64,000 nucleotides of DNA from a virus, in IMG/VR virus record IMGVR_UViG_3300032322_001295, positions 23,878 through 87,877 of that record; one strand, 5' to 3'. The notes under the pieces were generated by a model, which saw nothing but the letters and a program-made list of their open reading frames with translations, ran no database searches and was not told the DNA's origin. Positions 18,911 through 58,166 of this stretch are shown one piece after another. Each line of letters starts with the position of its first letter. Position 1 is the first letter of the stretch. A program made the translations under genes and the position numbers.

Positions 18911-18915
18911 ACTTA

Positions 18916-19038: not shown

Positions 19039-19248
19039 TTAATCTTCTAGTTTACGCACGTTCACATACGTTACTACAGTATCACCACTATTATCTGTAT
19101 CTAGAAGTTGATTCCAGATATAATCTGCAACTTTTTCCGCGTTCTCTTCAAGTACATATACACTGTGAAGATTGTCATTTAAATAAATACCATAAGAAAA
19201 TGGTGTTAAATAATCAAAAGATAACTTTTCCATAATACTAGTGACCAT
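19039..19248 (-). CDS. Hypothetical early protein
   Basis: ORF track; 69 aa. Confidence 0.6.
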   Translation of the reverse strand: MVTSIMEKLSFDYLTPFSYGIYLNDNLHSVYVLEENAEKVADYIWNQLLDTDNSGDTVVTYVNVRKLED

Positions 19249-19437
19249 TCTTTATAGGGCATTTGAGTCATTTCCCTTGTTGTGAAAAATATATAAAGTG
19301 TAGATATAATCACCTATAATAAAACCCACGCAATCACTTACAATATTAGTATGTATAACACTAATAGAGTTGTGCGATATGATGTAGAGTAGAGTAATGC
19401 GCAGCAGATGGTAGCCACTCACACCTTTTCTCTATCA

Positions 19438-19453
19438 TGTTCCACGTGGAACA
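19438..19453. promoter_or_regulatory. parS: parS centromere-like site
   Basis: Perfect 16-bp palindrome TGTTCCACGTGGAACA matching the bacterial chromosomal parS consensus; intergenic. Confidence 0.88.
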
Positions 19454-19539
19454 ATAGCACTAACAGTCTGACAGTCAACGCTATATGTAAATCATTATCT
19501 AATATTTTGTTATCTTACTAACAGTAGTATGAACCTTTT

Positions 19540-19570
19540 AAAAAAACCCCACGCCCGAAGGCGCAGGGAT
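19540..19570 (-). terminator. Intrinsic terminator
   Basis: ATCCCTGCGCC-TTCG-GGCGTGGGGT followed by a T-run, directly after the stop of 19576..19938. Confidence 0.85.
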
Positions 19571-19575
19571 TTTTC

Positions 19576-19938
19576 TTACTTCTTCTTCTTAGTAGTAGTT
19601 TTGACCACTACTTCTTTCTTTTCTTCTTCTTCTTCAGGAAGTCTAGTCTCGACGACAGCTTTGTTGTTGATGGTGACGAATAACTCCTCACCAGTTTCAA
19701 ATACAAACTCTTGTTCGTCTAGGAAATCTTCTAGGATTCCATCTTTACGTAATTGGTCTATCAACTGATAGGCACCAATGGTACCCTTATCAGTCAAGAT
19801 ACACTGCGAAGCTTTCTGCCCCCAAGTGCCTTTTCCCAATAACTTTACAAGATGTTCCCCTTCTTTCATGAATAGAGGAGAGTTCTTTTCTCCTTTTTCA
19901 ATGATTTCTGTAACCTTTCCTAATGATACCTTGCTCAT
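19576..19938 (-). CDS. Hypothetical protein; monocistronic first gene left of the strand switch
   Basis: 120 aa, has its own terminator, Glu/Lys-rich tail. Confidence 0.8.
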   Translation of the reverse strand: MSKVSLGKVTEIIEKGEKNSPLFMKEGEHLVKLLGKGTWGQKASQCILTDKGTIGAYQLIDQLRKDGILEDFLDEQEFVFETGEELFVTINNKAVVETRLPEEEEEKKEVVVKTTTKKKK

Positions 19939-20033
19939 AATACATGAAATTAAAAAGTTAGATAATGATTTAACGCGGGGGTACGATACATTAAGTGCCC
20001 TCCCGTCTTTTTTCTTTTTCCTCTACCAAAAAC

Positions 20034-41060: not shown

Positions 41061-44000
41061 ATGGCACAGCCCACTGTAAACAGATTCTATAAGGGCTTAA
41101 ACTCAGATATGAGCCTTACCGATAGATCACAAGATATTTATCTTGACGGTCATAACATAAGGCTTGCTCGTAGGGAAGAAGGAACTCTTTGGGCCGCAAA
41201 CATTAGAGGTAACGAAGAAACATTTCAACTTAAAGAAAATTACGTTCCAATAGGGTCTGTCGAGTTTGATGGATTTCTTTTTATCTTTTCATACAATCCA
41301 TCTACAAGTTTTTGTGAGATTGGTTCTTATCCTTCACCTGACCCAACAACAAACTATATAACTAGAGATTACAGGCCATTAAGAAACTATACTGCTCAAA
41401 TATATATACCAGACATTGACGAGTCATGCCTTGTATCAACGGTTACCAATCTTGGCGAGTTTACTACTCCATTACTTGAATTTAAATGCGACAAACCATT
41501 GCGCGTTGAAGCAAGGTTAGATTTTGATGGTTCTGTTAATCTTTACTGGACTGACGATAATCTGCCCTGGCGAAGCGTTAATAATGGATTTGTACTAAGA
41601 ACTGGTGCGCCAAATAATCGATACGTAACTGCCGGCATGATACAGTCTGGCTACATAAATGGCATTAATGAAAACTCTAATCACCCAATAGTAGATTTTC
41701 AAAACTATGGTTCTGGAAGTTTAAAAGTAGGTAACTATTTTTTCTTTGTCAGATACACAGACTTAAACTATTTAACAACATCTTTTCTTAGTCAATCTGG
41801 GCCAGTTCCATTATTTGTAAGTAATAATGCAGGAGTTGCAGTTGTAACATTTAGCGGAGAATCAGATAGTATTTCTAATAAGTCTGTTAATCTTTTAGTG
41901 TCTGGCCTTGATGTCAATATACCATTTATAGAGATTGGTTACATACGTTATTTTGGTCAAGATACTTTTGAATGTTTTCTTATTGATAAGAGATTTAGCA
42001 TAAACGGTAATCCGCAAGTAGGAGTAAACATTACCGGTAACGAACCACTTATAGCACTTACTATTGATGAACTAGTCTTATATAAACCAAGCGATGCGCT
42101 TTATTGCAAAGACATAGCACAAGCATTTAATACATTTTTTATTGCAAATACTAGAGGCCCTGTATTAGATCATCCTGATTTGCGTAAGTTTATGTGTGCA
42201 CTTACTTTATCAGAAAACTATGAAAACAATGGCCCGGCCGATGAAATAAGAACTGATGTAAATAATAATCCGTACTCTATTGATGGAAACGATACAGAAG
42301 AAAAAGTAGGTTATTTCTCTGGTGAAACATATTGCTTTGCCATTGTACCCGTATTTAAAGGTGGATTTACTGGACTGCCATATCCAATGACAGGTTATGA
42401 CAACTACCTTGGTTTAATGTCAAATAGTAATAACCAGGGTACATTTAGATTTAGAAGATACTTTAATGCACCAGCATACGATGGCACAAATACTTTTATA
42501 AAAGGAATTAATGTAAATACATCTGGCGCTGCAACTATTTATAACACATCGTTATGGTTGCAAGAAAATCTTGAAGGTGTATATGTAACAAGAGCAGAGC
42601 GCAAACCAAATCTTTTGTTTCAAGGACTTAGTCTTCGTTGTTACAATGGTAAGATGAATCCAAATCCACAAAAAGAAAACTTAGATTTTTGGGATTATTT
42701 ACAAGATGGTACTACTGGAGTAATACCATTAAATGGTCAATTTTCTCTTGCAACTGAAGAAAATTGGTATACTGATAGATTAATGCCTTTGTTTGAACCA
42801 GCAACTTATATGTTTCAAAGTCAAACAAGAAGATGGGATAATATATTACAACCATTTACTCCATTAGGTGATATTTTTAAATGGTTTCATTATGCTAGGC
42901 CTTATAATATGAAACAAAGAAATGACTTTGTTGATGCTAATAGTTTAGCAATATTTTCATCTGATTATTATATAGGTAGAGAAAATGTTCCAGATAATTC
43001 TTATATTGAATTGTTAGCTACAACACAATATGCAAATCATTGGAACAGAGAATCATCTTCATTAAATCCTATTGCAATAAACAATAGATCGGCTATAGGA
43101 AACTGGAAACAAAGTGCAACAGACCCTGGACCAACAATACCATTATGGGAAGATTATGATCCTGTTTATAATTTTGCATCTGCACCTAATAAAGGTGTTG
43201 TACAAACATTTTTAGGGTATAATCAAAATGGATTAAATTTAGTTGCACCAGAAGGATTTAACGCTAATTGTTTAAATATAGTTGGTTGGACTGCAGTGCC
43301 AAATACAAGATTTGTTTCTCGTTATGACGAAGGTAAAATAGCAAGTCAAGATGGTTTTTACTATTATGAAATAGGACTTATTGGGGCGCCTAATCAAAAA
43401 AATATTGAGATAAGTTTGCCAGTAGCAACTCCTGATTATGTTGCTATAACAAATGCTCTTGCATATAATGCACCATTCGGAACAGAATATAATCATTTTA
43501 TAGATTCTTGGAATAGATCAATAGTTAACACTTACATAGCAAATCCAAACACATTAAACTATACTGATTTTTACGATTTTAAAAATACAGAGTTTTATCC
43601 AATAGGTAAGTTTCAAAACATAACAGATTTTTTAGCATCAGCGCAACATACTTATTACCGTGGAGATTGTATTGTTTCAAGAACATATCTGAAACTACAA
43701 AATGGCAGTAATGAAAATATAAGTCAATATTTTTATGATGTTCTTGCAAATGTAGAAGGAATTGGTAACTCTACAGTAGTTGATAGAACAAATGCAGAAG
43801 AAGCAACAGAGGCATTACAAAAAGGTTATGGTCATTGGGTAAGTGTTGTAACTGAAAACAAATACAATCCTAATTATAGATATGAGTTAGGCCGTAACTA
43901 TTTCTATCCAAAGACTAACCCATTAAATCCTGGTATTGACTTTGCTTGGATATATGATAGTCCAGAAAGTTTCTTTTACAACAAAGGAATGTCGGAATAC

Positions 44001-45161
44001 TTGGGCCCGCGTGCAGGAGTGGGTATTGATTTGTTACAACCATTGAGTGACAACAGATTTCCTACAAGAATAAGACCTAGCCTCAAACATATCTTTGGTG
44101 CCGTTCGTGATGGGTATAGACAGTTTGTGCCGGCCGATGCAAAAGACTTTGATTACGAAGCTGGAGAAATACAAGCATTAGCCGTAATGTTTGATTATTT
44201 GTATTCTTTTCAGAATAGAGCAATAAACCTTCATCCTATTAACGAACGTGTCACACAGCAAAGTACAGCAGGCAGCACAGCCATATTAGGACAATCTACT
44301 GGACTTACCGAATACAGACAAGTTATCAAAAGAGGATATGGCACTCAGCATAGGTTTGGTGTTATAAAAGCTAATCAGGCATTGTATTGCATTGACTGGA
44401 ATAAACGTGCAGTGCTTAGAGTTGCCGGTGGCGAAGTTCAAATGCTTGATGTAGAAAAAGGTGTACAGTCATGGTTTAGAAGAATAGTTGCACTTGGTTC
44501 TACTGGATATAGCGATGCGCTTGAAATATTACCAAACGCTCACACGTGCGGGCTAGGCATACATGGTGTATACAATAGAAAGTATAAGGAAGTTATTTGG
44601 ACATTAAAACTTGGCGAAGAAACAAAGACTATTGCTTTCTCAGAAGAAATGGACACATTTTTAGGAACACATGGGTACAAGCCAAATATGTATGCACAGG
44701 TAGAAGAAGACCTTTATAGTTTTGTTGACAATAAAGCCTGGTTTCATGACGTCAAAGATAAGTACGACAACTTTTATAACATCCAAGATATTTGGAAAAT
44801 AAAAGTATCTGTTGCCGAGGGAGCAGAGATTACTAAGCATTATGACAACATCGTTATTACAAGTAACAATAGAGTGTTTAGTGCTATTAAGTTTGAAACG
44901 CAACATCAGGTAGCAGAACAAAGGCCATTCCAAACAACAAACGAGTTTTGGTACGCGCCGACATACAGAGAAAACGAATGGCGATTACCGATACGTAGGG
45001 CAGACAACATCAAGGAACCGGAACTAAACATTTACGATGACTTTGGATTTGACAAAACACCCATGCGCGGGCGATATCTTATTATAGAACTAGAATACGA
45101 TGGCGAAAAAGAACTTTGGGTAAGAGAACTAATGACTTATTTTAACCTTTCATTTGCATAG
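41061..45161 (+). CDS. Tail stabilization or muzzle protein (P22 gp10-like)
   Basis: 1366 aa; N-terminal NRFYKGLNSD; GETYCFAIV; YRGDC; GYGTQH; C-terminal MRGRYLIIELEY. Confidence 0.88.
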   Translation: MAQPTVNRFYKGLNSDMSLTDRSQDIYLDGHNIRLARREEGTLWAANIRGNEETFQLKENYVPIGSVEFDGFLFIFSYNPSTSFCEIGSYPSPDPTTNYITRDYRPLRNYTAQIYIPDIDESCLVSTVTNLGEFTTPLLEFKCDKPLRVEARLDFDGSVNLYWTDDNLPWRSVNNGFVLRTGAPNNRYVTAGMIQSGYINGINENSNHPIVDFQNYGSGSLKVGNYFFFVRYTDLNYLTTSFLSQSGPVPLFVSNNAGVAVVTFSGESDSISNKSVNLLVSGLDVNIPFIEIGYIRYFGQDTFECFLIDKRFSINGNPQVGVNITGNEPLIALTIDELVLYKPSDALYCKDIAQAFNTFFIANTRGPVLDHPDLRKFMCALTLSENYENNGPADEIRTDVNNNPYSIDGNDTEEKVGYFSGETYCFAIVPVFKGGFTGLPYPMTGYDNYLGLMSNSNNQGTFRFRRYFNAPAYDGTNTFIKGINVNTSGAATIYNTSLWLQENLEGVYVTRAERKPNLLFQGLSLRCYNGKMNPNPQKENLDFWDYLQDGTTGVIPLNGQFSLATEENWYTDRLMPLFEPATYMFQSQTRRWDNILQPFTPLGDIFKWFHYARPYNMKQRNDFVDANSLAIFSSDYYIGRENVPDNSYIELLATTQYANHWNRESSSLNPIAINNRSAIGNWKQSATDPGPTIPLWEDYDPVYNFASAPNKGVVQTFLGYNQNGLNLVAPEGFNANCLNIVGWTAVPNTRFVSRYDEGKIASQDGFYYYEIGLIGAPNQKNIEISLPVATPDYVAITNALAYNAPFGTEYNHFIDSWNRSIVNTYIANPNTLNYTDFYDFKNTEFYPIGKFQNITDFLASAQHTYYRGDCIVSRTYLKLQNGSNENISQYFYDVLANVEGIGNSTVVDRTNAEEATEALQKGYGHWVSVVTENKYNPNYRYELGRNYFYPKTNPLNPGIDFAWIYDSPESFFYNKGMSEYLGPRAGVGIDLLQPLSDNRFPTRIRPSLKHIFGAVRDGYRQFVPADAKDFDYEAGEIQALAVMFDYLYSFQNRAINLHPINERVTQQSTAGSTAILGQSTGLTEYRQVIKRGYGTQHRFGVIKANQALYCIDWNKRAVLRVAGGEVQMLDVEKGVQSWFRRIVALGSTGYSDALEILPNAHTCGLGIHGVYNRKYKEVIWTLKLGEETKTIAFSEEMDTFLGTHGYKPNMYAQVEEDLYSFVDNKAWFHDVKDKYDNFYNIQDIWKIKVSVAEGAEITKHYDNIVITSNNRVFSAIKFETQHQVAEQRPFQTTNEFWYAPTYRENEWRLPIRRADNIKEPELNIYDDFGFDKTPMRGRYLIIELEYDGEKELWVRELMTYFNLSFA

Positions 45162-45163: not shown

Positions 45164-48100
45164 ATGCCTCCATTTATTACGCACAACGGACAAACTGGAT
45201 ATTTTCAGAATGGTGTATTTGTTCCAGCAACACAAGAGCAGTACAATAATCAAATGTCGATGTACAATCAGTTTGGTAATAATCCATTTGTATCTGCACA
45301 ACAAACATTTACACAACAGCAGCAATCTATTCAACAAGGTGTAATAAAACCACCTACTGCAGGTCCATTGAGTAATGAACAAAAAGTATCTATAGCGCAA
45401 GGAGATGCAACATCAACAAACCAGTATAACCCACAAGACAAGTTAAACTATGAGTTTACAGATAAAGGTTTAGGATTTAAAGCTGGCAATCAGTTTTATC
45501 CTAGCACCGCTATGACTGCAGGTGGAATGCCTTTAATAGGAAGTCCATATATGGGCAAAACATTAAATGCTTATGATTTAGCAAAAGAAGATAGCTCTAA
45601 ATACGGCAATCCATATTTGGCTTTACAAAATCAACTTATAAATAATCCTATGCCCGGGATGTCAAATACAACTATTCCAACACAAGCACAAGTAACAGTA
45701 CCTCAAACAACAGGAGTAACAGAAGTAATTCCAACATCAACAACAGAACAAGCAGGAGGTGGAAACTGGTTGACAAATATGTTCAATAGACCATCCGTAG
45801 AAGGAGTGCCAGCTGCAGAAAATATTGCTGACAATGGACTAAAAAGTGATGTGTTAGGTGATTGGGGAAAAATGGGATTTAATGGTAAAGAGTTTTTTAA
45901 AAGCGATAAAGGTCAAGCAACATCAGCAATAGCTGGAGCAGGAGTAGGTTTAATATCTGGACTTGCTAAAGCAGGGATGCAAGATAAGTACGACCCTAGA
46001 GTAGGTATGTCAAAACCTAACTTAGGTGGAAATCTTTTTGGCGATGCAACATTTACACAAGTAGGTCTTAATCCTGCTCTTATGGCGGCTACAGGTGGGA
46101 TCTCAGCACTTGTTGGTGGTGGTGTTGACTTAATCAAAAATGCTGTTAAGTACACCAAACAAAAAGATCGATACGAAAACAAAAAGCTTGCAACAGATAC
46201 TATGCAGAGCATTGACGACGCAAGAGAAAATATGAAGCCAGATTATACTGGTTATGCTAGAAGTGGAACTCAAGTAAATCCATATTTAAAAGCACAGTAT
46301 GGAACAAAAGCAATAGTCGAAGGGAAAGAAATGGATATTGATAGTGATGAATACAGAAGACTATACAATTCTGGAAATCTTATGAGAGTTGATGAAGGAG
46401 GAATGCCTACAATGACTACTGAAGAAGTGGTTGTTACGGATCAAATGACTGATCACACTAGAAAGCAAAGAGAGATTCAAAAAGAAAGAGATGCGCAAGG
46501 GTTAAATTACAACTGGAGTTCTGGTTCTAACAATCCTTATATGAGTCAACTGCAAAGTACTGTACCTACTGGAATAAACTCAACAGTTCCTAGCGTTCCA
46601 CCATTTCAACCAATATTTAATCCTGAAGACGATTATTTAAAAAATTATGTTGGAAAATCATTAGGTGAACAACCTTTTATATTTAGCTCTAAATCAGAAG
46701 TAGGAATGGGCTATAATAACTTTGGTAATAATACATGGATGTCAAGTAATCTTGGAACTGTAGACGATAGTCCAACTATTATGGGTCATTTATCTACTCG
46801 TTATAAAAATAATGATGCTTATAAAGTTAGTTTAGAAAATAATGACATTCCATCTTTATATTTCTTTTATAAAGATTTAAGTAAAGAAAAAAATTGGCAA
46901 GAAGACGTTGGCGTTTCAGCAATGAAATATTATGATTCTAGAAATGAATTAATGGATATGGGTGATTCTTATGAAAGAGAGGGTAGGTTTATAGATGATA
47001 TTGTTAAAAAACAAGGTTATGGGCATAATCTTGTAATGGATGAAAATGGAGATAAACTTATTAGAAGTTTTACTGCTGATAAAGATAAATTTATGGGTTC
47101 TGTCACATTGACTCCAGAAATGTATAAAGCAATACTTGAAGCTCCAAATCAAACAGAAGCAAAGCGTAGATTAATGCAAATGGCCAAAATACCACAAGAT
47201 GTAGATATGGATAAACTTTTTATTCATATGAACCTAAGTAGACCAAGATATTTATCTTCTTATTTAAAAGCAAAAACAGTAAATCCTAATTCTGTAAAAA
47301 ATTGGCATGATGTACCTCCTGGCAATATTTATATTAATAGAGTATTTCAAAATAGAACACAGCCAACAAGTTATCATAATGAAACTAGACTTAAACAAAA
47401 TAGACTAGGTGGTATGGTGCAAAATCCGTATTTAAAAGCTCAATATGGCACTGAAGTTATAGTTGATGGTAAAAAAATAAATACAGATAGTAAGGAATAT
47501 AGAGATATGTATGCTTCTGGCAATCTAATAAATGTAGACAAAGATGGCATTCCTATAAGATGGTCTGGCGAAGAAGCAGTTGTTACAGCACAAATGACAG
47601 ACACTCCATCATATAATTGGGGTACAGGATACGCACCAAAACAAACTGTTTTAAAAACTGATAATAATGCTTACTCTGTAGGAACTACAATGCCATCTAA
47701 ATCATGGGCACAAGTAAGGCCAGAAAATATAAATTTTAATTTAGAAACAGATGAAGGTAAAAAAAACGAAGCAGTTTTTAGAGCAAAAGAAACAATGAAA
47801 GCTATTAAAGATAGTGAAGGATATAAACAAACATTAGAAAATGTTATCAATGAATCTGAATATATATTAGATGATGATCAAAAAAATATATCTTCAGATT
47901 ATATGTTTGTTCCTGGTAGCAAAAAATATCCACATATAGGTATTGTTGATAATGATTATTTAAAAGAAAAAGAACAATCATTATATGATTATCAGTTTAA
48001 CAATCCTTATGGTCTTTTTTATGATTTAGAAAAACAAAGAAATCAAAATGTTGATTATAAAAAAGTTGGTGTATTAAGTCAAAAAGAAGCAGATGAACAA

Positions 48101-48805
48101 GGTGTTTTAGGATACATGATGTCACATCAAATAAATAATACATATGATAAAAAACGCAATCCAGAATATCATTTTATAAAAGATATTATGATGGTAAACG
48201 ATCATAATATGGATGAAAACATAGCAACAGCTGTTGAAGAAATAGAACATTATCAACAATTTAGACCATATAAGGATGAAATGAAACCATATCGTAGTCC
48301 ATACATTAATAATCCTGGTAAAATGCATAATATGACACCTTTTGAAAGTAAAACAATAAGAGAATACAATACATCACATTGGGATTATTTGCAATTGCCT
48401 TATGAAACTGCTGCTAAAAAAAGAGCATCTGAAGTGTATTTTATAAATGAAGGCATGCTTCAACCTGGTGAAAAAATGAATCAAAAACATTATGATTATT
48501 TAGAAAAAGAATATAATAAATGGCTTAATGGTGAAAAAACTTTTGTTCCAAATAATGTTTTACAATATTATGATTTATCAGAACCTAGTTTTAATCAAGG
48601 TTGGGATATTTTTGATGAATATCGTAAAGAAGCTAAAGATGAAGGAGTTGATATAGAGTCATATAATAAAGCATTATTAGATGAAAAAAATCAAAGCAAA
48701 GCAATACAAAATGCAAGAAAAAAAAGAGCAAATAACTTTATTATGTTATCTAAACTTTTAGCACAAAACAATAAAAATTTTTATGATGATAAATCAATAT
48801 CTTAA
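45164..48805 (+). CDS. Modular virion cargo or ejection protein with a duplicated module and a C-terminal zincin-like domain
   Basis: 1213 aa following the muzzle gene; Gly/Ala-rich hydrophobic segment; two NPYLKAQYG modules; EEIEH...YLQLPYETAA. Confidence 0.7.
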   Translation: MPPFITHNGQTGYFQNGVFVPATQEQYNNQMSMYNQFGNNPFVSAQQTFTQQQQSIQQGVIKPPTAGPLSNEQKVSIAQGDATSTNQYNPQDKLNYEFTDKGLGFKAGNQFYPSTAMTAGGMPLIGSPYMGKTLNAYDLAKEDSSKYGNPYLALQNQLINNPMPGMSNTTIPTQAQVTVPQTTGVTEVIPTSTTEQAGGGNWLTNMFNRPSVEGVPAAENIADNGLKSDVLGDWGKMGFNGKEFFKSDKGQATSAIAGAGVGLISGLAKAGMQDKYDPRVGMSKPNLGGNLFGDATFTQVGLNPALMAATGGISALVGGGVDLIKNAVKYTKQKDRYENKKLATDTMQSIDDARENMKPDYTGYARSGTQVNPYLKAQYGTKAIVEGKEMDIDSDEYRRLYNSGNLMRVDEGGMPTMTTEEVVVTDQMTDHTRKQREIQKERDAQGLNYNWSSGSNNPYMSQLQSTVPTGINSTVPSVPPFQPIFNPEDDYLKNYVGKSLGEQPFIFSSKSEVGMGYNNFGNNTWMSSNLGTVDDSPTIMGHLSTRYKNNDAYKVSLENNDIPSLYFFYKDLSKEKNWQEDVGVSAMKYYDSRNELMDMGDSYEREGRFIDDIVKKQGYGHNLVMDENGDKLIRSFTADKDKFMGSVTLTPEMYKAILEAPNQTEAKRRLMQMAKIPQDVDMDKLFIHMNLSRPRYLSSYLKAKTVNPNSVKNWHDVPPGNIYINRVFQNRTQPTSYHNETRLKQNRLGGMVQNPYLKAQYGTEVIVDGKKINTDSKEYRDMYASGNLINVDKDGIPIRWSGEEAVVTAQMTDTPSYNWGTGYAPKQTVLKTDNNAYSVGTTMPSKSWAQVRPENINFNLETDEGKKNEAVFRAKETMKAIKDSEGYKQTLENVINESEYILDDDQKNISSDYMFVPGSKKYPHIGIVDNDYLKEKEQSLYDYQFNNPYGLFYDLEKQRNQNVDYKKVGVLSQKEADEQGVLGYMMSHQINNTYDKKRNPEYHFIKDIMMVNDHNMDENIATAVEEIEHYQQFRPYKDEMKPYRSPYINNPGKMHNMTPFESKTIREYNTSHWDYLQLPYETAAKKRASEVYFINEGMLQPGEKMNQKHYDYLEKEYNKWLNGEKTFVPNNVLQYYDLSEPSFNQGWDIFDEYRKEAKDEGVDIESYNKALLDEKNQSKAIQNARKKRANNFIMLSKLLAQNNKNFYDDKSIS
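46277..47602 (+). repeat. Duplicated ~60-aa module (copies at 46277-46453 and 47423-47602)
   Basis: NPYLKAQYGTKAIVEGKEMDIDSDEYRRLYNSGNL...EEVVVTDQMTD versus NPYLKAQYGTEVIVDGKKINTDSKEYRDMYASGNL...EEAVVTAQMTD. Confidence 0.9.
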
Positions 48806-48808
48806 ATA

Positions 48809-51800
48809 ATGAATCCATATCTAAACAGAAAAGCTATTGTTAGCAAAAGAGGACAATGGGATTATCCAAGACAAGATACTATTGTTCCTACTCCTAATGG
48901 AAGCATAACAATGCAAGGAGTTAACTATCCTGTGTACGGACAAGATGAAACCGGATATGGACAAATGATGTATCCAAATAAAGAATATCAGTTTCCTGGC
49001 AAAATGGTTTATGAGACACCAATGATGTCAGTTGGTGGCATTGCTAGTATAAATCCTGTAGATCCAGTTGATCCTATTGAAGCGGAAAAAAGAACACAAA
49101 TGCTTCAAATGTATAATGAAGAACTTCAAAAAGCAAAAAATAAAGTTAGCAGCGATGCTTTTAAAAATAAGTTTGCATACGAAGGCAAAATGTCAGGATG
49201 GAATGAAAGTGAAATAGAACAAGAAAGAAATAACAGAATAGCAAACTACGATAACATAGATTATCAATACGACAATTTTAATGATTTATTTACTGAAAAA
49301 CCAAGTGTAAGAGGTTTAATAAAACCTGATTTTAAGTATTCAACAATGGGTAAAATAATTGACCCAAACGATCCATCAAAAGGTTACGCATTATCAGTAG
49401 AAAAACAAAATAAAACTAAAGTTGGTATTAACCCTAGTTTATTGCAGTTTCCAAATATTGCAAGGTCTGCTATGCAGCATGAAATAGGTGGACATATTGG
49501 TGATGTTGCTTCTCCAAATGATAAAAGCCCTTTAGAATATTATGGAGATAATAAAGGTACACCTTTTTATGCTCCAGTATGGAATCATACACCTTTTGCT
49601 TTACAAACAATAAAAGAAAATACAGTACCTCATCCTTATTACTCTATGCCTACTGAAGTAAAAGCAGGCAAAAGACAGGTAGAAAACTTATTAGAAAATG
49701 CTCCTATTGATAAAGTAAACTTTAATAAAGCATGGAAATATGGAGACGATGTTAGTTTGGATCATTTTAAATACATTATAAATCCTCAACAATACAGCGA
49801 TAATCCAAATGATTTTAAAAATGAAGAATCTGACATGATGCTTAAATCTATTTATGGAGAAGATAGAGTCAAAAAAGGAAGAGATTTTACAGAAGATGAA
49901 ATAAACGAAGGATATAAGAAGTTTAAAAATTTAATGATTCTTGCACAAAATCAAAAATCTATGTTAAACAACAACAAAAATCCATACGCAATTACTGCAA
50001 AAAATGGTGCTATGATTAAACGCGCCGATGGTTCATATTCTGAACGCGGACTATGGGATAATATTAGAGCAAACAAAGGTTCTGGAAAAAAACCAACAGA
50101 ACAAATGCTTGAACAAGAAAAAAAGATTAAAAAACAAGAAATGGGAAATGGTGGAAAAACAAACCAACATTTTAATAAGTTTAGACCCGGTGGAAAGCCA
50201 GAAGGAGATCCTGAAGATCAAGATTTTTTATTTCCTTTTTTATCTGGATTAGCTTCTAATGTACAAAAAGGTTTAAACTATGGATTATCGCAAGGAGCAA
50301 ATGCATTAAACGCTCTTGGTACTGCAGGAGAAACTTTAAAGAAATATCAACAAGTACCAACTCAACAACCAAATACAGGTGGCTATTCATGGGGGCCATC
50401 TATGCCTACACAAGTTGTAGAAACATATGGTTCTGAACACAGTCAAACACAACCTTCTAAAGTTGGTTTTAAAGGAGATTATAATAATATTATGCCTGGT
50501 AATCAATTATTGCAAACAGCAAACAAAGCAGTTGGAGATGTTGGTTCATTTATATTAAGTGCTACTGGAGAACTATTTAATACTCCATTTGCACTTGCTA
50601 ACGAATCTTTTAGAGATTTAAGTGGAAAATCTGCAAACTATCAAAGCGCATTACCAGATCCTACACGAATAGCATTAAACGCATCTGGAAACAGTAATTT
50701 AGTAAAAGAACAACAAAAAACATTAACTGATGTAATTGGAATAGACAGAGCAACAAATCCTTATGGTGCATTACTTGGTGATATTCTTACTCCTACATTA
50801 CCTATAGCTGCATTAGGAAAAGCAATGAATACTACTAACGCTATTAAAAACACACCAAAAGCAACAGGATTAACAAATGCAATAGATAATCCAATGCTTT
50901 TTTTCAATAATGCTAGTAAATCATTAACAAAAAATCAACTTCCTGAACAATATCAAAATGCATCAACTAATAGTATTTTAGATATATTAAACTTTAGGCC
51001 AAGAATACCTACAGAACCAGTATTACCAATAAATTCACAAGTTACTCCTTCTGTTACTCCTCCTGTTACTATTCCTTTTAATAGAAGAACATTACAAGAA
51101 ATAAATGAATCTAGAAATTATCATGCTGATCTATTTAATAGAGGTATTATTGATCACTCTATTTATGATCAACTTGAAGCAAATGCAATATTGAATGTAG
51201 TGCCACAAGGAGTTAATGCAGAAGAATACGGAAGATTTGTACAAAGCGGAAAATTATATGCACCATTAAATAATCCAAATGCAGGTAATATAGCTAATGA
51301 AAAATATCTTGATAATGTTAGTATGTTATTACAAGAAATGGAAAATCGTTTGCCATTGTTAAGACCAGGTTCTAGTTATACTCAATCTGAAATAGCAGAT
51401 CAACTTAGTAATGTTCAAAGTTATTTTCAAAATAGACCATCACTATTATCAGTAAATGATTTTGATAATTTAACTGTAGGAGCTAATCCAAGTAATCAAT
51501 ATGCAGGTCAATTTCAAAATTATATTCAAAGATTACAAAATGCATCTAATAACTTATCAAATCAACTAGCACCACCTCCAACAACAATAAATATACCTAG
51601 TTCTTTAACAGGACAAAATTTTAATAGTCAAATAATAAACTCTATAAATCCACAAACATTACGAGGATTAACTACTACTACTTTACAAGGAAGAATAAAC
51701 AATGCATTGTCATCAATAGGTAATGTAGTTACTAATATTAATCAATCATTAGGTAAGAAATTTTTCCCTAAAAAGGCAGACTGGACATTTACTGATTCTG

Positions 51801-53386
51801 AAAAAAGAATAAATGAAATGCTTAAAGAAGGATTAGGTATTAAAAAAACAAATGATGAAATATATGTTAAAGCTAAAGGAAGGCAAGGATATGATGGTGG
51901 ATATTATGATATATTTATTAAAGAAGCAGATGGATCATATTCAAAAATGGGTGATATAAGTTTTAGTGTTGTATCACCAGGAAAACAAACAAAACAAAAA
52001 ACATTTACAGAAGGAATTGCCGATATTCTTAAAGGAAAAAAAGAAGAAAAACAAGTTGGTCCTATACTTTATAAAGGTACAGATTTTCCATATTCTAACA
52101 AACCTTTACTTGAAAAAGCAGATACTGCTCTTGGAGCAGAAGTAGTTCAAGCGGTTAAAAAAACATTAAAAGAACAAGGAGGAAAAATGCAAAGTTCTAA
52201 TAATCATTTTTCTCCAGGAAGAATAAGATATATTCATGACTTTAAAAAAGGTAGAGTTGATTTAATTGAAGCAACTCCAGAAAAAAGAGCATTAATTGAT
52301 AAAACTCTTAATGCTGTTGAAGGTAAAACTAAACAAGATTGGATAGATTATTTTTTTGAAAATGAACATGATTTTGAATGGGGCAAACCTAGAGCTGGTA
52401 AAGAAGATGAATGGAGAGCTCTTCAAGGAGTGAGATGGGAATATAAAAAGTTTGGAGGTGTAATTAACCCATATTTGCAAGCACGTTCTGGTACCTATGT
52501 TAAATCATCAAATAAAAAAGTAAACTGTGACTGCGGTTGGTCATGGGATATTTCTGATGGAGGCAGTGATCCTTACAAATGTCACAAATGCGGTAACGAT
52601 AATAGTTATAAAAAAGCACAATTTGGTTTTCAATTAGAAAATAATAAAGAAGATGCTATGAATGAAATCGATAGAAATGTCGGTTACATTATGAAGGGTA
52701 AAGAAATACCTACTGGAATTAGTATGACAAAATTAAATCCAAATGAAGAATATACATATCAACAATGGGTAAAAGGATTAACTCCAAATTTAAGACATTC
52801 AGCAGGAGATAAAAACTATGATATGCGTGGTGCTTGGCAAGTAGGTGAACAACCAGAGTTATTTTATAATGATGAACAAGGTAATTTTCAATCAGCTCAT
52901 CCTATAGATGTAACACAAGAAAGAAGTATATATGAACCACATTTGTTTTCTAGAAATCCATTTACTGGTAAGTCTTTAAAAGGGCCTAATCATCCATCAT
53001 TTATGCATGCTCTTGAAGGAGACATTAAATCTGGAGGCAAAGTAAAAATGGATTTAAAAAGTGGCGATATGTTTACTTATAGCAAAGGCGGTGAGTCCGA
53101 TTTAGTACCTGTAGAAGTAGAACGTAGCGAGCGCATTTATGACCCAAAAGGTAACTTACTTAAAGAGATTCCAGCGGATGCTCCTACTCACGAAGAAGGC
53201 GGTGTTAAGCTACATCTTAGACCCGGCACACTAGTATTTCCAAAGAAATATTATAAGGCCTTAGATGCTGCAAGTGGACTTCCAGAGTTTAATAAAATCA
53301 AAGAGAAGATGTTAGATAACGCAGAAAAAGCTTATCTTCGTGGTGAGCCTTATTCATCAGGCGGTAGAAGAGATTATACAGCATAA
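48809..53386 (+). CDS. Modular multidomain virion cargo protein
   Basis: 1525 aa; zincin-like HEIGGH...PTEVKA, Zn-ribbon CDCGWSW...CHKCG, YDMRG...PNHPSF module and EVERSE...THEEGG module, separated by xxG(G) motifs. Confidence 0.75.
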   Translation: MNPYLNRKAIVSKRGQWDYPRQDTIVPTPNGSITMQGVNYPVYGQDETGYGQMMYPNKEYQFPGKMVYETPMMSVGGIASINPVDPVDPIEAEKRTQMLQMYNEELQKAKNKVSSDAFKNKFAYEGKMSGWNESEIEQERNNRIANYDNIDYQYDNFNDLFTEKPSVRGLIKPDFKYSTMGKIIDPNDPSKGYALSVEKQNKTKVGINPSLLQFPNIARSAMQHEIGGHIGDVASPNDKSPLEYYGDNKGTPFYAPVWNHTPFALQTIKENTVPHPYYSMPTEVKAGKRQVENLLENAPIDKVNFNKAWKYGDDVSLDHFKYIINPQQYSDNPNDFKNEESDMMLKSIYGEDRVKKGRDFTEDEINEGYKKFKNLMILAQNQKSMLNNNKNPYAITAKNGAMIKRADGSYSERGLWDNIRANKGSGKKPTEQMLEQEKKIKKQEMGNGGKTNQHFNKFRPGGKPEGDPEDQDFLFPFLSGLASNVQKGLNYGLSQGANALNALGTAGETLKKYQQVPTQQPNTGGYSWGPSMPTQVVETYGSEHSQTQPSKVGFKGDYNNIMPGNQLLQTANKAVGDVGSFILSATGELFNTPFALANESFRDLSGKSANYQSALPDPTRIALNASGNSNLVKEQQKTLTDVIGIDRATNPYGALLGDILTPTLPIAALGKAMNTTNAIKNTPKATGLTNAIDNPMLFFNNASKSLTKNQLPEQYQNASTNSILDILNFRPRIPTEPVLPINSQVTPSVTPPVTIPFNRRTLQEINESRNYHADLFNRGIIDHSIYDQLEANAILNVVPQGVNAEEYGRFVQSGKLYAPLNNPNAGNIANEKYLDNVSMLLQEMENRLPLLRPGSSYTQSEIADQLSNVQSYFQNRPSLLSVNDFDNLTVGANPSNQYAGQFQNYIQRLQNASNNLSNQLAPPPTTINIPSSLTGQNFNSQIINSINPQTLRGLTTTTLQGRINNALSSIGNVVTNINQSLGKKFFPKKADWTFTDSEKRINEMLKEGLGIKKTNDEIYVKAKGRQGYDGGYYDIFIKEADGSYSKMGDISFSVVSPGKQTKQKTFTEGIADILKGKKEEKQVGPILYKGTDFPYSNKPLLEKADTALGAEVVQAVKKTLKEQGGKMQSSNNHFSPGRIRYIHDFKKGRVDLIEATPEKRALIDKTLNAVEGKTKQDWIDYFFENEHDFEWGKPRAGKEDEWRALQGVRWEYKKFGGVINPYLQARSGTYVKSSNKKVNCDCGWSWDISDGGSDPYKCHKCGNDNSYKKAQFGFQLENNKEDAMNEIDRNVGYIMKGKEIPTGISMTKLNPNEEYTYQQWVKGLTPNLRHSAGDKNYDMRGAWQVGEQPELFYNDEQGNFQSAHPIDVTQERSIYEPHLFSRNPFTGKSLKGPNHPSFMHALEGDIKSGGKVKMDLKSGDMFTYSKGGESDLVPVEVERSERIYDPKGNLLKEIPADAPTHEEGGVKLHLRPGTLVFPKKYYKALDAASGLPEFNKIKEKMLDNAEKAYLRGEPYSSGGRRDYTA

Positions 53387-53413
53387 AATCTATAACATTA
53401 AAAATATAAAGTC

Positions 53414-56260
53414 ATGACAAAATGTAAAGGCGGTTGCCAAATGAAAGCTGGTGGTAAAACCTGTGCAAAATGTGGATGTGATATGTCGCCAAAAAAAATG
53501 GCAAATGGTGGAGAAACGTATAAGTCAGGTGGAATGGCATGTATGAAATGCGGTGGCAAGATGCACAAGTCTGGTGGTACTATAAGTTCTTGTATGAAGT
53601 GCGGTGGCGGTAAATATACTTTTGGTGGTAAAACCGGATGGTCCAAAAAAAAAAATGATGTAAGCAAATATAAATCAGGTGGCATGACAAAACCAGTCTG
53701 TCCTCCTGGTTATATATTAAATGCAAAAGGAGAGTGTGTCATTGACACACAATATGCAATAGACCGTATGTATGAAAATGATAATAAACCTGATAAAGAA
53801 TATGACGTAAATGCTATTAAAAACAAAGTTCCGTTTAATCATAGTTTAGAATGGAATATAGCTGAAGCAATAGATCCAACAGGTATAACTTCTTGGCCTG
53901 ATGTTTATGAAACATGGACAGATAGAAAGTTAGATTATAATGATTTTACTGAACCATTAGGAGCATTGCCGTTAATAGGTAGATTAGGCAAAATTACTAA
54001 AGCTTTTAAAGGAGCTCCACCCAAAACAGTATACAATAAATGGTATGATGGCTTAGGTTTATTTGGCAATACAATTGATTCATCTCAAGATATTTATAAT
54101 GACAATATAAAACCTACTAAAAAATATCAATTTGGTGGAGTTGCAGATAATACTTTGATGACTAATGATGCAGAAATACAGTTAGGTAGAAATGCTATTA
54201 ATGCACCAGAACCAACTTATGATGCAAGTGTTATTTCTAATAAAAGCCCTATGCAAGTAACCGATAATGTTTCACAAGGAACAGAGCAACTTGGATATAA
54301 AGATATAGTAAAATCATTCCAGAAAAAAACTGTTGACAAGTCATTGCCAAATTGGGGTTATGCAAAACAAGAGCAAATAAAGTTAAATGAGTTGATTAGA
54401 AAAGATATATCTACTGGCAATGCAAAAATGGATTTACTTGTTGAAGATGATATAATAGGAGATAATACACTTAAAGCTATGCGTGCTTACGAATCAAGTG
54501 GAAATTACACAAGACCAGAGGGTTTTAAAGATAAGTGGCTTGCTGAGTACAAAAAGCAATGGGATAAAAATCAAAAAAGTAAATCATCGATAGAAAATCA
54601 GGAAACAGAAACACAAAGTCTTAACCCTAATGAATCTTCTGATATTTTTAGTTCTGACTGGGCAAAAAAACATTTTGGTGCAAACTTAAATACAAAAACA
54701 AGTACAACTCCTAAGGAAAAAGAATCATTTAATTTTCCATCAATGTCAGATGTTGTTTCTGGTATGCAAAGCGGAATCAATTATGGCGTAAATGCATTTG
54801 GTAATTTTATACAAGGTGCTGGAGAGTTTATTGAAAAATACCAAAACAAAAACGAACAAAAAGCAGAAAGCAAGTCGCAACTTGATGAAATGTATAATTT
54901 TTTTAATCAATTTAGTATAAAACCTACAAACAAACCAGTTGGATATGGAACAGTGTTAAGACCGGAAGAATCTAATACTAAAGTAAAAAGTATGGCCGGA
55001 AAATACTATGCAGAAAAATACTCTCAAAAAACAAGTGGTTGGCCAAAGTCTGCATTGATAAAAGAAGGTGGTATAGAAATAAGCGCTAAAGAATTAAAAA
55101 GAAAAGATTTAGATACATACTTTCCAATTTTTGGGATATCAAAAAGTAAAAAAGGCGTAAGAGCAACAGGTAGAGACAATTCATTATCTTTTTTTGATGC
55201 CGTAGAAAAAGAACAAACAAAAACAAAAGATGGCTCTATAAATACATCATTACAGTTTATAGATAAGTTGTTATCATCATCATCCAAAGCTATTGTAATA
55301 CCAAAACCTGGACAGACTTATGGTAGAGATTTAATGGATATTTATCTACAAGATCCTTATAATCCAGATAGATTTCATGCATTAGATAGTCTTGGAGTTG
55401 TAGAAGGAGAAGCTATATTTGGCAAAACTATAACACCTACTGAGGGAACATTATCAGAAAGACAAAAATTAATAAATAAACAAGCAGAAGAAAAAGGAGG
55501 TTTTAAATATTTAGATTCTCCATTTATATTTAGATATTTAAATAAAAATAAAAAAGAAAAACCTTTATCTTCTAACTTTGAAACACCTGAAACAGAAAAT
55601 GAAATAATCAGTCGACAAACATCAGACAATCAAAAGTATGGCAAGTTTATGAGTAGAGGAAAAGACATAGCAAATAGAACTGATGTAAAAAGAAACGCAG
55701 ACTCTGAATCTTTTTTTGCAGATTATGCAGAACCAAATTCTGTAATAATTGATATTGGATCCGCACTAGGAAATACAAATCCATCATTAGCTGGTATTTC
55801 AGTAAAAGAACTTGCAAGCAATCAATCTATTAAGAAAAAAGGTATAAAAGTAATAGCCACAGATATTCCTTCTGAAGTCAAAACATTTAAAATGCATCAA
55901 AGAAATAAACAAGCTTATGATATAGATTATTCAGAAGTTCCGGTTACATACAACACTCCAATAGATCAAATATTAAAATCAAAAGATTTAAATGACAAAG
56001 AAAATGTATATTTAAGATCAGCGAATAGTATCGATTTATTGATGAATCCAGAAGAAACTAAAGAACATTTTAAACATTTAGCAAGTACATTAAAAGACAA
56101 AAAAGTCACTTATGTATTTAATAATGTAATACTTGTGAAACCAAAAGGTTCTTCTGTTTTTAGCAAAATAGGAAACGTAAACAATGCAGCGTATGATCAC
56201 AATACAACTTCTTGGAAATTAAACGCAAATAGAAAACCATACACATTAACAAACATATAA
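53414..56260 (+). CDS. Modular cargo protein: xxGG-repeat N-terminus, PG-binding-like segment, C-terminal SAM-methyltransferase-like domain
   Basis: Nine xxGG motifs in the first 90 aa; LLVEDDIIGDNTLKAMRAY; VIIDIGSALG...VIATDI. Confidence 0.7.
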   Translation: MTKCKGGCQMKAGGKTCAKCGCDMSPKKMANGGETYKSGGMACMKCGGKMHKSGGTISSCMKCGGGKYTFGGKTGWSKKKNDVSKYKSGGMTKPVCPPGYILNAKGECVIDTQYAIDRMYENDNKPDKEYDVNAIKNKVPFNHSLEWNIAEAIDPTGITSWPDVYETWTDRKLDYNDFTEPLGALPLIGRLGKITKAFKGAPPKTVYNKWYDGLGLFGNTIDSSQDIYNDNIKPTKKYQFGGVADNTLMTNDAEIQLGRNAINAPEPTYDASVISNKSPMQVTDNVSQGTEQLGYKDIVKSFQKKTVDKSLPNWGYAKQEQIKLNELIRKDISTGNAKMDLLVEDDIIGDNTLKAMRAYESSGNYTRPEGFKDKWLAEYKKQWDKNQKSKSSIENQETETQSLNPNESSDIFSSDWAKKHFGANLNTKTSTTPKEKESFNFPSMSDVVSGMQSGINYGVNAFGNFIQGAGEFIEKYQNKNEQKAESKSQLDEMYNFFNQFSIKPTNKPVGYGTVLRPEESNTKVKSMAGKYYAEKYSQKTSGWPKSALIKEGGIEISAKELKRKDLDTYFPIFGISKSKKGVRATGRDNSLSFFDAVEKEQTKTKDGSINTSLQFIDKLLSSSSKAIVIPKPGQTYGRDLMDIYLQDPYNPDRFHALDSLGVVEGEAIFGKTITPTEGTLSERQKLINKQAEEKGGFKYLDSPFIFRYLNKNKKEKPLSSNFETPETENEIISRQTSDNQKYGKFMSRGKDIANRTDVKRNADSESFFADYAEPNSVIIDIGSALGNTNPSLAGISVKELASNQSIKKKGIKVIATDIPSEVKTFKMHQRNKQAYDIDYSEVPVTYNTPIDQILKSKDLNDKENVYLRSANSIDLLMNPEETKEHFKHLASTLKDKKVTYVFNNVILVKPKGSSVFSKIGNVNNAAYDHNTTSWKLNANRKPYTLTNI

Positions 56261-56273: not shown

Positions 56274-58166
56274 ATGTTTCGCCCATTTCCAACTATGTAC
56301 AATCCGTTTTTAGTATCGGAACCAACTTATACAGCATCACAACAAACTGTTTATCCTCAAATGACAGGAGAAATAGAGGCTCAACTTTCAGATGCAAACA
56401 GATTGTACCCTAAAAATAATCCTGGTATTGATATAACTAAACAACCAGATCCACTTTATTCTATGGCAAACATAGGTATGCCGATTAGACCAAGAGAATA
56501 TAATCAACCAACTAAATTACAAGAACGACTTTCTAATTATTCTAATATTGTTAAAAACATTGAAGATGTAAAAAGTCCTTTTGCTTCTTATGGCGACATG
56601 AATAAAGAAGGTGTATTGTTACAAAAAGATATATCTACACCAGAGTATGATCAAATGACCGGTAATGTTGAAATTCCATATGTAATGGACTATACTCCAT
56701 TTGCATCTGAAGAAGAAATGAATAAGTTTTATAATCCTTCTATTCAAGAAGCTGAAATAGTTGGAAAATACTCAGAACCAATAGGACCAAAAAATTATAC
56801 ATATCAAACATTAGGACCAGAACCATACGAATATAGTAAAGAACCTATTGGTCCAATGCCATATGAATACAGTAAAGAACCAATAGGCCCTAAACCTTTT
56901 GAATACAGATATGATAAGCCAATTGGTCCAGAGCCATTTGATTATAGGTACGATAAACCAATAGGACCAGAACCTTTTGAGTATGAAAAAACAAGTCCTA
57001 ATACAGAAACAAACTTATTAACACAAACTCCTAAAAACAAGTTTGGCACTCCAGAGGCATATTATCTAGGTAAATCTATGCTTGATGCTACTGCACTTAT
57101 CAATAATATGGTACAGCCACAGCCACCATCTATGCAGATGAAAATACCTCATTACGAAAGACAAAGACTTAATCCGGAACCATACGATGCTATGCGCTCT
57201 CAGATGCGCGATCAAGGAACACAGGCATACAGACTACAAAGAGAAAACATATCGCAAGCAAGCGACCTTATGAAAGGATTAGCAGCTGTTACTTCAGGCA
57301 TTCAGCAAGGACTAATGCAAGTAGGTATGCAGCAGGCTGGCGCCGAGCAACAAATACAAGGTATCAATCAGCAGATATCTATGCAGGAGCAGCAGCAACA
57401 AACACAAATGCTAAATCAAGAATCTGCTACTAACTATCAGATACAACAACAAGCACAGCAATACAAAGACCAAATGGTATCTGCTCAGTTAGCAAGATTA
57501 GGAGATACTGCTGGCGCATATGCAAAGTATGTAAATATGAAAGATATTGTTAGCAAACAAGATGCTGTAAATAAAGCTGCTATTCAATCTACTAATGACA
57601 TTCAAAATGCAATGCTACAATATCAAATGCATAAAGATGCAATGGATTCAGATGAATATAAATCTGCATGGGCACAACATTGGACTAAAACACTAGATCA
57701 AATGTCTACAGATAAAATCAAAGACGAAAGGTTTGGTGCACTAAAAGAATATTATGGTGAAATGTCGCCAAAGTATAGTGACTATCAGAGAATAGCAATG
57801 GATCCTACATTTACTAAATCATACTATCAAAAGAAAAATGATTATGAAAACTTCCAAAGATTATACCCCGGTGGCGTAGCACCTGATAAAACAAAATATG
57901 CTAATGAAACTGATTATAATAATGCAGTTGCAGACTTCCAAAAAGCAGAAGCAAATAGTAAGGCATTTACTGAAGATAAATCATACAAACAGTTCGAACA
58001 GATGCAAGATTTTTGGACTGAAATAGGCAATGAACGCGATGAATCTGGTGAGCGAAAAAGATTTGCAGACCAGTACATGGGACAAAGAGGTTACTACACT
58101 ACAGAGCAACTATTAAAAACAGTGCAAGAGGCATTGGACCGAAGTAAGCAATCATTAGAAATATAG
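56274..58166 (+). CDS. Virion cargo protein with Pro-rich repeats and a Gln-rich coiled coil
   Basis: 630 aa; PIGPxPxEY repeats; Q/M-rich helical region like DNA-pilot or ejection proteins. Confidence 0.65.
   Translation: MFRPFPTMYNPFLVSEPTYTASQQTVYPQMTGEIEAQLSDANRLYPKNNPGIDITKQPDPLYSMANIGMPIRPREYNQPTKLQERLSNYSNIVKNIEDVKSPFASYGDMNKEGVLLQKDISTPEYDQMTGNVEIPYVMDYTPFASEEEMNKFYNPSIQEAEIVGKYSEPIGPKNYTYQTLGPEPYEYSKEPIGPMPYEYSKEPIGPKPFEYRYDKPIGPEPFDYRYDKPIGPEPFEYEKTSPNTETNLLTQTPKNKFGTPEAYYLGKSMLDATALINNMVQPQPPSMQMKIPHYERQRLNPEPYDAMRSQMRDQGTQAYRLQRENISQASDLMKGLAAVTSGIQQGLMQVGMQQAGAEQQIQGINQQISMQEQQQQTQMLNQESATNYQIQQQAQQYKDQMVSAQLARLGDTAGAYAKYVNMKDIVSKQDAVNKAAIQSTNDIQNAMLQYQMHKDAMDSDEYKSAWAQHWTKTLDQMSTDKIKDERFGALKEYYGEMSPKYSDYQRIAMDPTFTKSYYQKKNDYENFQRLYPGGVAPDKTKYANETDYNNAVADFQKAEANSKAFTEDKSYKQFEQMQDFWTEIGNERDESGERKRFADQYMGQRGYYTTEQLLKTVQEALDRSKQSLEI
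56775..56989 (+). repeat. Coding tandem repeat (about 6 units of 10-13 aa)
   Basis: EPIGPKNYTY-QTLGPEPYEYSK-EPIGPMPYEYSK-EPIGPKPFEYRYD-KPIGPEPFDYRYD-KPIGPEPFEYEK. Confidence 0.9.

Follow-up and report, generated by a model that had tools for sequence, protein, structure and literature searches.

A recurring Gly-Gly junction peptide at module borders of probable cargo proteins in a freshwater crAss-like phage

Analysis of 64,000 nucleotides (nt) from a freshwater crAss-like phage (IMG/VR record IMGVR_UViG_3300032322_001295; the whole stretch, bases 23878-87877 of the 87,877-bp contig, is referred to as the window) revealed three consecutive large open reading frames (ORFs), A, B and C, that are punctuated by a recurring Gly-Gly peptide, and comparison with relatives showed that cassettes have been exchanged at these seams. 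Each of the three proteins would be a chain of small, independently folding modules ending in [M/Y/F]-x-x-G-G, and many joints would carry a fuller peptide of about 20 residues, [YF]GG-xx-NPYL-xK[YF]xxGG, that is kept in the mature protein. The junction pattern is real, widespread and apparently undescribed, and our literature search found no paper describing such a seam peptide. Our favoured interpretation, which we hold at about even confidence, is that A, B and C are C1-type cargo (ejection) proteins in which the junction acts as an uncut hinge or as a docking or packing handle, and also as a seam for cassette exchange.

The locus is anchored by the gene for the crAss muzzle protein, which carries no copy of [YFMA]..GG; a Crass_capsid Pfam match lies upstream of it and six ORFs, A to F, lie on its 3′ side. 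The muzzle gene and the three ORFs of interest are:

41061..45161, plus strand: crAss muzzle protein gene (PF25731 crAss_MUZ, E 6.8e-41; PF25729)
45164..48805, plus strand: ORF A, 1213 amino acids (aa), C1-like cargo protein and first gene after the muzzle gene, a mosaic relative to L001-L003, P0016 and P0017
48809..53386, plus strand: ORF B, 1525 aa, mosaic cargo protein with only blocks in common with 19 relatives
53414..56260, plus strand: ORF C, 948 aa, cargo protein

A preliminary description of this DNA, made from its letters alone, had taken A-C for cargo-type proteins, which agrees with their placement directly after the muzzle gene (PF25731); judged by gene position, they are probably carried in the virion and injected. 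None of the three matched anything in Pfam, PHROG or PDB sequences. GenBank phages held no relative of the locus by megablast, nor of B, its N-terminal mini-module M1 or P0042 by tblastn, and cultured relatives were reached through the muzzle protein only.

Every motif copy listed in the preliminary description was found in its place (residue numbers):

ORF A: YARSG 364-368; KAQYG 376-380 and 758-762; NRLGG 746-750
ORF B, N-terminal half: MMSVGG 72-77; TAKNG 396-400; EMGNGG 444-449; KFRPGG 457-462
ORF B, C-terminal part: YKKFGG 1212-1217; QARSG 1224-1228; KAQFG 1269-1273; TYSKGG 1423-1428; PYSSGG 1514-1519
ORF C: nine GG sites within residues 7-90; KYQFGG 237-242

Chance does not account for the enrichment of the motif over the rest of the proteome. 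The 3686 aa of A-C hold 14 copies of [YFM]..GG and the 23219 aa of the remaining ORFs hold 9 (odds ratio 9.8, p 1.9e-7), corresponding to 3.8 and 0.39 copies per 1000 aa, and NPY occurs 9 versus 3 times (odds ratio 18.9, p 2.5e-6). Compared with per-protein shuffles, NPY is found 5 versus 0.33 times in A and 4 versus 0.4 times in B, and [YFMA]..GG 8 versus 0.9 times in the whole of C, most copies lying in its N-terminal array. Plain GG shows no such excess in A (9 versus 6.8) or B (13 versus 10.3), indicating that the signal is the aromatic/Met-x-x-GG context, a specific peptide rather than glycine richness. The loosest form of the motif in the preliminary description, [KR][YFMA]..G, shows no more than weak enrichment (odds ratio 2.4).

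The full junction spans about 20 residues, x-[YF]-G-G-x-x-N-P-Y-L-x-K-[YF]-x-x-G-G. In the NPY contexts collected from A-C and their relatives, x-[RK]-[YF]-G-G is followed by two residues, N-P-Y-[LMI] and then [KQ]-[AK]-x-[YSF]-x-G-(G/T), with WL in place of NPYL within junctions of relatives. NPYL is hence not a prefix of the motif, as first described; it stands between the two G(G) elements of one composite junction. A degenerate DNA pattern for NPYLxK[YF]xxGG matched two IMG/VR stretches.

The view of the cargo ORFs as mosaics was upheld: relatives of B match it block-wise only, with BLAST blocks ending at residues 77 (after MMSVGG), 449 (after EMGNGG) and 1428 (after TYSKGG) and starting at 1213 (YKKFGG) and 1424-1426. 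Eight of 19 breakpoint clusters on B lie at most five residues from a listed motif, compared to 1.7 expected (p 1.2e-4), and in all proteins compared, a redundant set, 71 of 371 breakpoints fall at the motif versus 15.5 expected. The modules and seams within A-D, all on the plus strand, are:

45911..46135, plus strand: Gly-rich hydrophobic segments of A (residues 250-324), Kyte-Doolittle peaks 1.2-1.5
46253..46303, plus strand: A junction 1, YARSG-TQV-NPYL-KAQYG (364-380), breakpoint at residue 375
47399..47449, plus strand: A junction 2, NRLGG-MVQ-NPYL-KAQYG (746-762), followed by a 137-nt domain repeat, 71% identical
47780..48787, plus strand: A C-terminal domain (873-1208), degenerate paralogue of the B zincin-like domain with EEIEH, from the hidden Markov model (HMM) of alignment A6
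48809..49039, plus strand: mini-module M1 (B 1-77), starting MNPYL and ending MMSVGG, from AlphaFold and database matches
49040..49990, plus strand: B zincin-like domain (78-394) with HEIGGH, from alignment with relatives and the A C-terminal domain
49991..50194, plus strand: mini-module M2 (B 395-449), ending EMGNGG, and KFRPGG 457-462; relatives break exactly at residue 449
52442..52627, plus strand: YKKFGG-VI-NPYL-QARSG junction, CxC...CxxC zinc-ribbon-like module (zinc-ribbon matches weak) and KAQFG (B 1212-1273)
53075..53383, plus strand: TYSKGG seam and C-terminal module (B 1423-1525), ending PYSSGG plus 6 residues
53414..53683, plus strand: Cys-rich array with nine GG sites (C 1-90)
53687..54139, plus strand: inserted cassette (C 92-234), missing from L002_C, and downstream seam KYQFGG (237-242)
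56274..56315, plus strand: ORF D N-terminus, degenerate junction (MYNPFL)

Gain, loss and movement of modules between ORFs exactly at the motif, as had been anticipated, is borne out by the comparison of C 92-234 with locus L002. C 1-91 and 235-479 match L002_C 1-93 and 85-378, a single RKYQAGG of L002_C aligns to both KYKSGG (85-90) and KYQFGG (237-242) of C, and the C 92-234 module recurs in B-type proteins (P0010 1413-1493, L002_B 1447-1527). On these alignments, C 92-234 is a cassette inserted with a duplicated seam and moved between cargo genes. The B 1423-1525 block is 94-100% identical in relatives that are otherwise about 40% identical or unrelated, and homologues of this module end in PYSSGG plus 3 residues. 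The B 469-520 segment (50213-50368) resembles C 435-483 (54716-54862; 37% identity, E 5e-5), which suggests one module common to both cargo proteins; the similarity of A 260-300 to the same B segment is not significant (E 0.85).

Several ORFs begin or end inside a junction: B starts with MNPYL and ends with PYSSGG plus 6 residues, and D starts with ..MYNPFL. In L002, A ends with ..RQGGKTNPYLK and the next ORF starts with MNPYLNKK, while L002_D starts with MKYNPYLQAQSG and ends with ..LEFGG. Other terminal copies in relatives are the starts MNPYLKKYNNGG and MGWLKKYQxGG and the end ..YGGWLKKYK.

AlphaFold modelled B 1-104 (65-sequence alignment) as an all-beta domain, with a predicted local distance difference test score (pLDDT) of 95-98 at residues 11-70 that drops to 61 and, over residues 76-86, to less than 50. 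This drop indicates that MMSVGG (72-77) is the predicted exit of the M1 fold, and in relatives the next module begins directly after the GG. Foldseek of M1 against the PDB returned weak cupin-like or GGCX rows, none at E<=0.001. The model of B 1200-1525 (15-sequence alignment) was unusable (pLDDT 39).

The nine GG sites at the start of C have a different setting. In three phages, His 51 and Cys 4, 8, 17, 20, 22, 43, 46, 60 and 63 are unchanged, the cysteines including three CxxC pairs, indicating that several of these GGs belong to CxxCGG zinc-knuckle-like turns and are a partly different thing. Probably, C 1-90 is a mini-domain that binds zinc and not just an array of linkers. Zinc-ribbon Pfam matches on single modules of A-C were weak (E<=1), with no other rows.

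The peptide is widespread. A phmmer search with B 1-530 against 1.84 billion representative proteins returned 2965 clusters at E<=1e-3, nearly all through M1 (B 9-77) and M2 (B 396-455), which have no fixed position in the matched proteins (87-2600 aa long). Across 145 diverse M1/M2 proteins, [YFM]..GG occurs 878 times versus 145 in shuffles, a 6-fold excess, and the logo reads [M/Y/F]-[Q/K/A/E]-x-G-G, with Lys enriched at -4 and -2, an aromatic residue or Met at -3 and mostly Glu at +1. Many of these proteins start with MGWLKKYQxGG and end with ..YGGWLKKYK, so that WL replaces NPYL in the same junction. Some M1/M2-family proteins score as DUF5872, and B's own M2 has no Pfam match even at E<=1.

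M1 matches 286 IMG/VR stretches. We sampled 80 IMG/VR loci holding M1, of which 42 are non-identical and have the crAss arrangement; the muzzle-then-cargo gene order is kept in these 42, where the motif densities are:

First ORF after muzzle: 3.7 per 1000 aa, 4.7 times shuffles
Second ORF after muzzle: 6.5 per 1000 aa, 5.7 times shuffles
Third ORF after muzzle: 3.1 per 1000 aa, 3.4 times shuffles
Muzzle ORF: 0.97 per 1000 aa, 1.5 times shuffles
Upstream virion genes: 0.36 per 1000 aa, 1.4 times shuffles

Domains co-occurring with M1 and M2 are DUF5754, DUF5872, YkuD, DUF3597, SLT and LysM, and relatives of B carry ADPrib_exo_Tox, SLT and DUF5872; this repertoire fits ejection proteins acting on the cell wall and on host targets. 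M1, about 65 aa long, stands at the start of the first cargo ORF downstream of the muzzle gene in dozens of crAss-like contigs. In a different, small-ORF phage type (e.g., L018, L029, L030, L039), a variant of M1 lacks the GG exit (ending ..FEIPHTAQYQ..). A second conserved tail, ..GG-x-[LV]-E-[FY]-[LI], ends many cargo ORFs (L012, L016, L037, L052, L071, L072, L077, L082, L084, L087), and the ORF that follows it starts with M-x-x-K-V-R-I-K-K-x-P-K-A.

The two NPYLKAQYG copies in the junctions of A differ at 4 synonymous sites in 9 codons, and across the whole repeat 20 of the 37 residues that are identical share their codon. At the DNA level the region has one genuine repeat, the 137-nt domain duplication (71% identity); sequence coding for the motif matches over 25 nt at most, at 88%. 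The synonymous differences between junction copies and the shortness of the DNA match indicate selection on the peptide.

The junction also occurs in a protein of known structure, cargo protein C1 (gp45) of Bacteroides phage crAss001 (PDB 7QOG chain M; Bayfield et al. 2023, PMC10172136), in which helix 214-245 binds the tail barrel and residues 425-552 form a portal-bound domain with ordered density. Junctions bracket both of the pieces resolved by cryo-electron microscopy: AYGG-PLEF (207-214; locus L089), a likeness of the second tail described above, lies just before the tail-barrel-binding helix, NAFGG-WL-NTQGG (424-435), which is degenerate in that it lacks the [YFM]xxGG aromatic, overlaps the beginning of the portal-bound domain, and FAYGG-DT-NPY (560-568) lies just after it. 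As residues 425-552 are modelled as one ordered segment, the degenerate junction there is uncut in the mature particle, which does not settle the case of canonical copies.

Like A, gp45 is encoded directly after the muzzle gene, and it shares with A-C the same junction peptides and a bead-on-string build, being thought to reach from tail barrel to portal; its glycine-rich N-terminal segment with a predicted transmembrane helix (136-158; PMC10172136) resembles the hydrophobic A 250-324. It differs in that the present phage encodes three proteins of this kind, far richer in modules and motif copies, and in that its published description includes neither the motif nor module exchange (PMC10172136). 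A phmmer search of A-C against PDB chains including 7QOG_M found nothing at E<=1. That the B C-terminal module would be the counterpart of the gp45 portal-binding domain is speculative; by BLAST, the B C-terminus has no similarity to gp45 401-614 (E 4.4). The motif is absent from crAss001 gp46 and from the cultured Flavobacterium phage Fpv2, indicating that it is lineage- and protein-specific.

In the favoured interpretation, the Gly-Gly pair would be a hinge that allows each bead to fold, unfold and refold alone during threading through portal and tail, and its aromatic and basic surroundings would make up a short linear motif that serves as a docking or packing handle towards the portal, the capsid interior or a partner. 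A handle would account for the retention of the peptide in tandem arrays and at the ends of proteins. The comparison with relatives shows that, in-frame ends being the same on every module, a module can enter, leave or switch cargo genes and leave adjacent folds intact. We favour an uncut hinge or handle because selection acts on about 20 residues, many more than a linker would require, because copies are retained in arrays and at the ends of proteins, where a hinge would be superfluous, and because one copy is ordered on the portal-bound gp45 piece while no cleavage enzyme or product is in evidence. Handle plus hinge is placed somewhat ahead of a passive hinge alone.

Several points weigh against this interpretation. 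For the present phage, we infer both binding by the junction and its intactness from sequence. The gp45 copy seen in density is the degenerate one, and canonical copies could still be cut. Cargo free of the motif is packaged (crAss001 gp46 and, judged by position, probably Fpv2 gp31/gp32), so that the peptide is not a general packaging requirement. Conservation of about 20 residues is more than a passive hinge would call for, a handle would not have to be present in 9-13 copies per protein, and neither role by itself explains everything. Finally, the structural evidence for module boundaries comes from one module, M1.

A bolder extension of the handle, which we regard as tentative and less likely than not, is that the junction would serve as a portable "load me" code: every module with [YF]GG-(WL/NPYL)-xK[YF]xxGG on its flanks would be docked in the crAss capsid or portal and injected, and in some lineages the junction might also be cut after Gly-Gly.

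Cleavage as the main role of the peptide appears rather unlikely to us. Here the cargo proteins would be polyproteins cut after Gly-Gly in the capsid or after ejection to release their modules, and the terminal copies would be short pro-peptides. The position-specific P-side logo is what a substrate would show, but its register is unlike that of adenain sites. The N-terminal copies, 11-12 residues long with GG at their end, look like removable pro-peptides, as do the C-terminal copies, which begin with GG, but the peptide persists at the extreme N- and C-termini of the ORFs. The copies in C are 7-8 residues apart and interleaved with conserved CxxC, so that cuts would yield useless peptides, and the 7490-aa ORF F, the polyprotein most in need of processing, has no excess of the seam motif (5 versus 3.1 expected; NPY 0). 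Both resolved gp45 pieces fall within GG-delimited segments, which would explain two separate densities; against this, junction residues 425-435 are ordered and continuous in the virion map, and the structural paper does not mention proteolysis (PMC10172136).

A candidate enzyme is encoded in the cargo genes themselves. The B 78-394 domain is conserved, with HEIEH or HESEH in L002 and L009, HEIGGH or HEFSGH, a one-residue insertion relative to HExxH, here and in the closest relatives, and EEIEH in A, and is a candidate zincin by these motifs. A zincin has been proposed as the processing enzyme of polyvalent proteins (PMC5512222), and zincin processing has likewise been put forward for crAss polyproteins, of which the RNA polymerase polyprotein has been described as "likely cleaved" (bioRxiv 10.1101/2020.03.07.982082). 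Such an HExxH domain in B-type proteins of close relatives speaks for processing, but it is non-canonical in both A and B of the present phage and, among the ORFs of the 80 loci, was matched only in those few loci that belong to the close relatives. The domain has no Pfam match, its profile found no PDB sequence, and the nearest named Atlas cluster, LPD23 at 0.82, is only a lead. The adjacent proteins A and B carry paralogous copies of the domain, and P0006 and P0007 have a further HEIGH copy at residue 854. A 873-1208 is itself a member of alignment A6, so that its match to the HMM is not independent; the BLAST alignment of A 1056-1207 with B 259-393 (E 0.025) gives independent support for paralogy, as does the alignment of B 78-394 with the A C-terminal domain.

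No peptidase family, and none of clan CE, came up in Pfam scans of the 87.9-kb genome, which covered 56 window ORFs, 4 further ORFs and ORF F in three pieces, the only related fold being a RadC-like JAB domain in the DNA-metabolism arm. This domain was set aside as a Gly-Gly peptidase; it sits in that arm, and RadC has been argued to be without the ubiquitin-tail groove (Iyer et al., PMC5512222). The preliminary description had left open whether the motif is a cleavage site or a loading tag: for the former we obtained no positive evidence and no protease domain, while a tag or handle stays viable. Adenovirus adenain and pS273R of African swine fever virus (ASFV) are clan CE cysteine proteases that process polyproteins at Gly-Gly-X sites with the consensus (M/I/L)-X-G-G|X. 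The present peptide shares with their sites a hydrophobic residue upstream of Gly-Gly in virion-internal proteins, but this residue (M/Y/F) is at P5 here and at P4 there, where Q/K/A/E is found instead; the analogy to adenovirus and ASFV drawn earlier thus fails both on register and on the missing clan CE protease.

That the peptide is a nucleic-acid or condensate "sticker", with K[YF]xxGGK and R[YF]GG acting like RGG boxes or histone-tail motifs to bind packed DNA or to hold the cargo as a dense body near the portal, we consider improbable. The Lys at -4 and -2 with the aromatic residue or Met at -3, the dense Lys/Gly/Cys array in C and the location of the cargo zone among DNA layers in crAss001 (PMC10172136) would suit such a role, but the +1 residue is most often Glu and the junction has a defined sequence and is not just a bias in composition. 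Least probable is that the motif plays no part in the protein and is only the trace of a recombination signal in the DNA or of recent duplication: modules are swapped at the motif and the NPYL codons are doubled on either side of the stop and start in L002, but this reading is already largely refuted by the synonymous divergence between copies, and the longest motif-coding DNA match is 25 nt at 88% while the peptide is kept across thousands of 50%-identity clusters and in crAss001.

Short terminal peptides on packaged, injected proteins are known from the internal proteins of T4, whose capsid-targeting sequence is removed by the prohead protease gp21, and from inner-body processing in phiKZ. 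Some ORFs here likewise start with a junction; the junction is, however, mostly internal, also C-terminal, and repeated, and no prohead protease family was found in Pfam scans of the genome ORFs. Podovirus ejection proteins (T7 gp14/15/16 and P22 gp7/16/20; cited in PMC10172136) are also packaged and extruded unfolded through the tail, and may carry peptidoglycan-cutting domains, as relatives of B carry SLT, but they are not known as cassette mosaics with a common seam peptide. Polyvalent proteins (Iyer, Burroughs, Anand, de Souza and Aravind 2017, PMC5512222) resemble the present ones in combining many unrelated domains per injected polypeptide with extensive mosaicism, and relatives of A-C carry ADP-ribosyltransferase, SLT, YkuD and zincin-like domains; by contrast, no known effector domain is detectable by Pfam in A-C themselves. 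The words "linker" and "glycine" are absent from the polyvalent-protein paper, and no seam peptide is described there (PMC5512222).

The two ends of the contig share an overlap of 123 bp, which would fit a genome that is circular or terminally redundant. ORF F is a single frame running across this overlap (window 61241-64000 and contig 124-19836), with HEISH at residue 2473 and HEFAH at residue 6082 and only a weak ResIII Pfam match; ORFs D and E encode 630 and 1011 aa. A, B and C lie in one reading frame, with TAA and one codon between A and B and 27 nt between B and C. This common frame is probably chance, because it is not kept in L002, and stop-codon readthrough fusing the three was rejected, the frames not being common in L002. 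The leftward arm (window 1-20000, minus strand) encodes the RadC-like JAB domain, a spore photoproduct lyase, ERF, Gp157 and RusA, with no DNA polymerase family in the Pfam summary.

Modular injected proteins were already known as polyvalent proteins (PMC5512222), crAss cargo proteins (PMC10172136) and the crAss RNA polymerase polyprotein (bioRxiv 10.1101/2020.03.07.982082), and the value of the present finding lies in the motif and its testability, not in the locus alone. Crassviruses rank with the most abundant phages known, and they select, pack and inject cargo protein amounting to several megadaltons. One seam peptide common to about three thousand protein clusters and to the structurally solved gp45 provides a concrete sequence handle on this process that is directly testable in a cultured phage. 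The motif predicts where modules start and end in otherwise unannotatable giant ORFs, and explains the shuffling of ADP-ribosyltransferase, peptidoglycan-acting and other modules among cargo genes. If the junction were indeed a "load me" code, swapping of cassettes would be how the phage evolves the payload that it injects, and a cultured crassvirus could have its payload reprogrammed by design.

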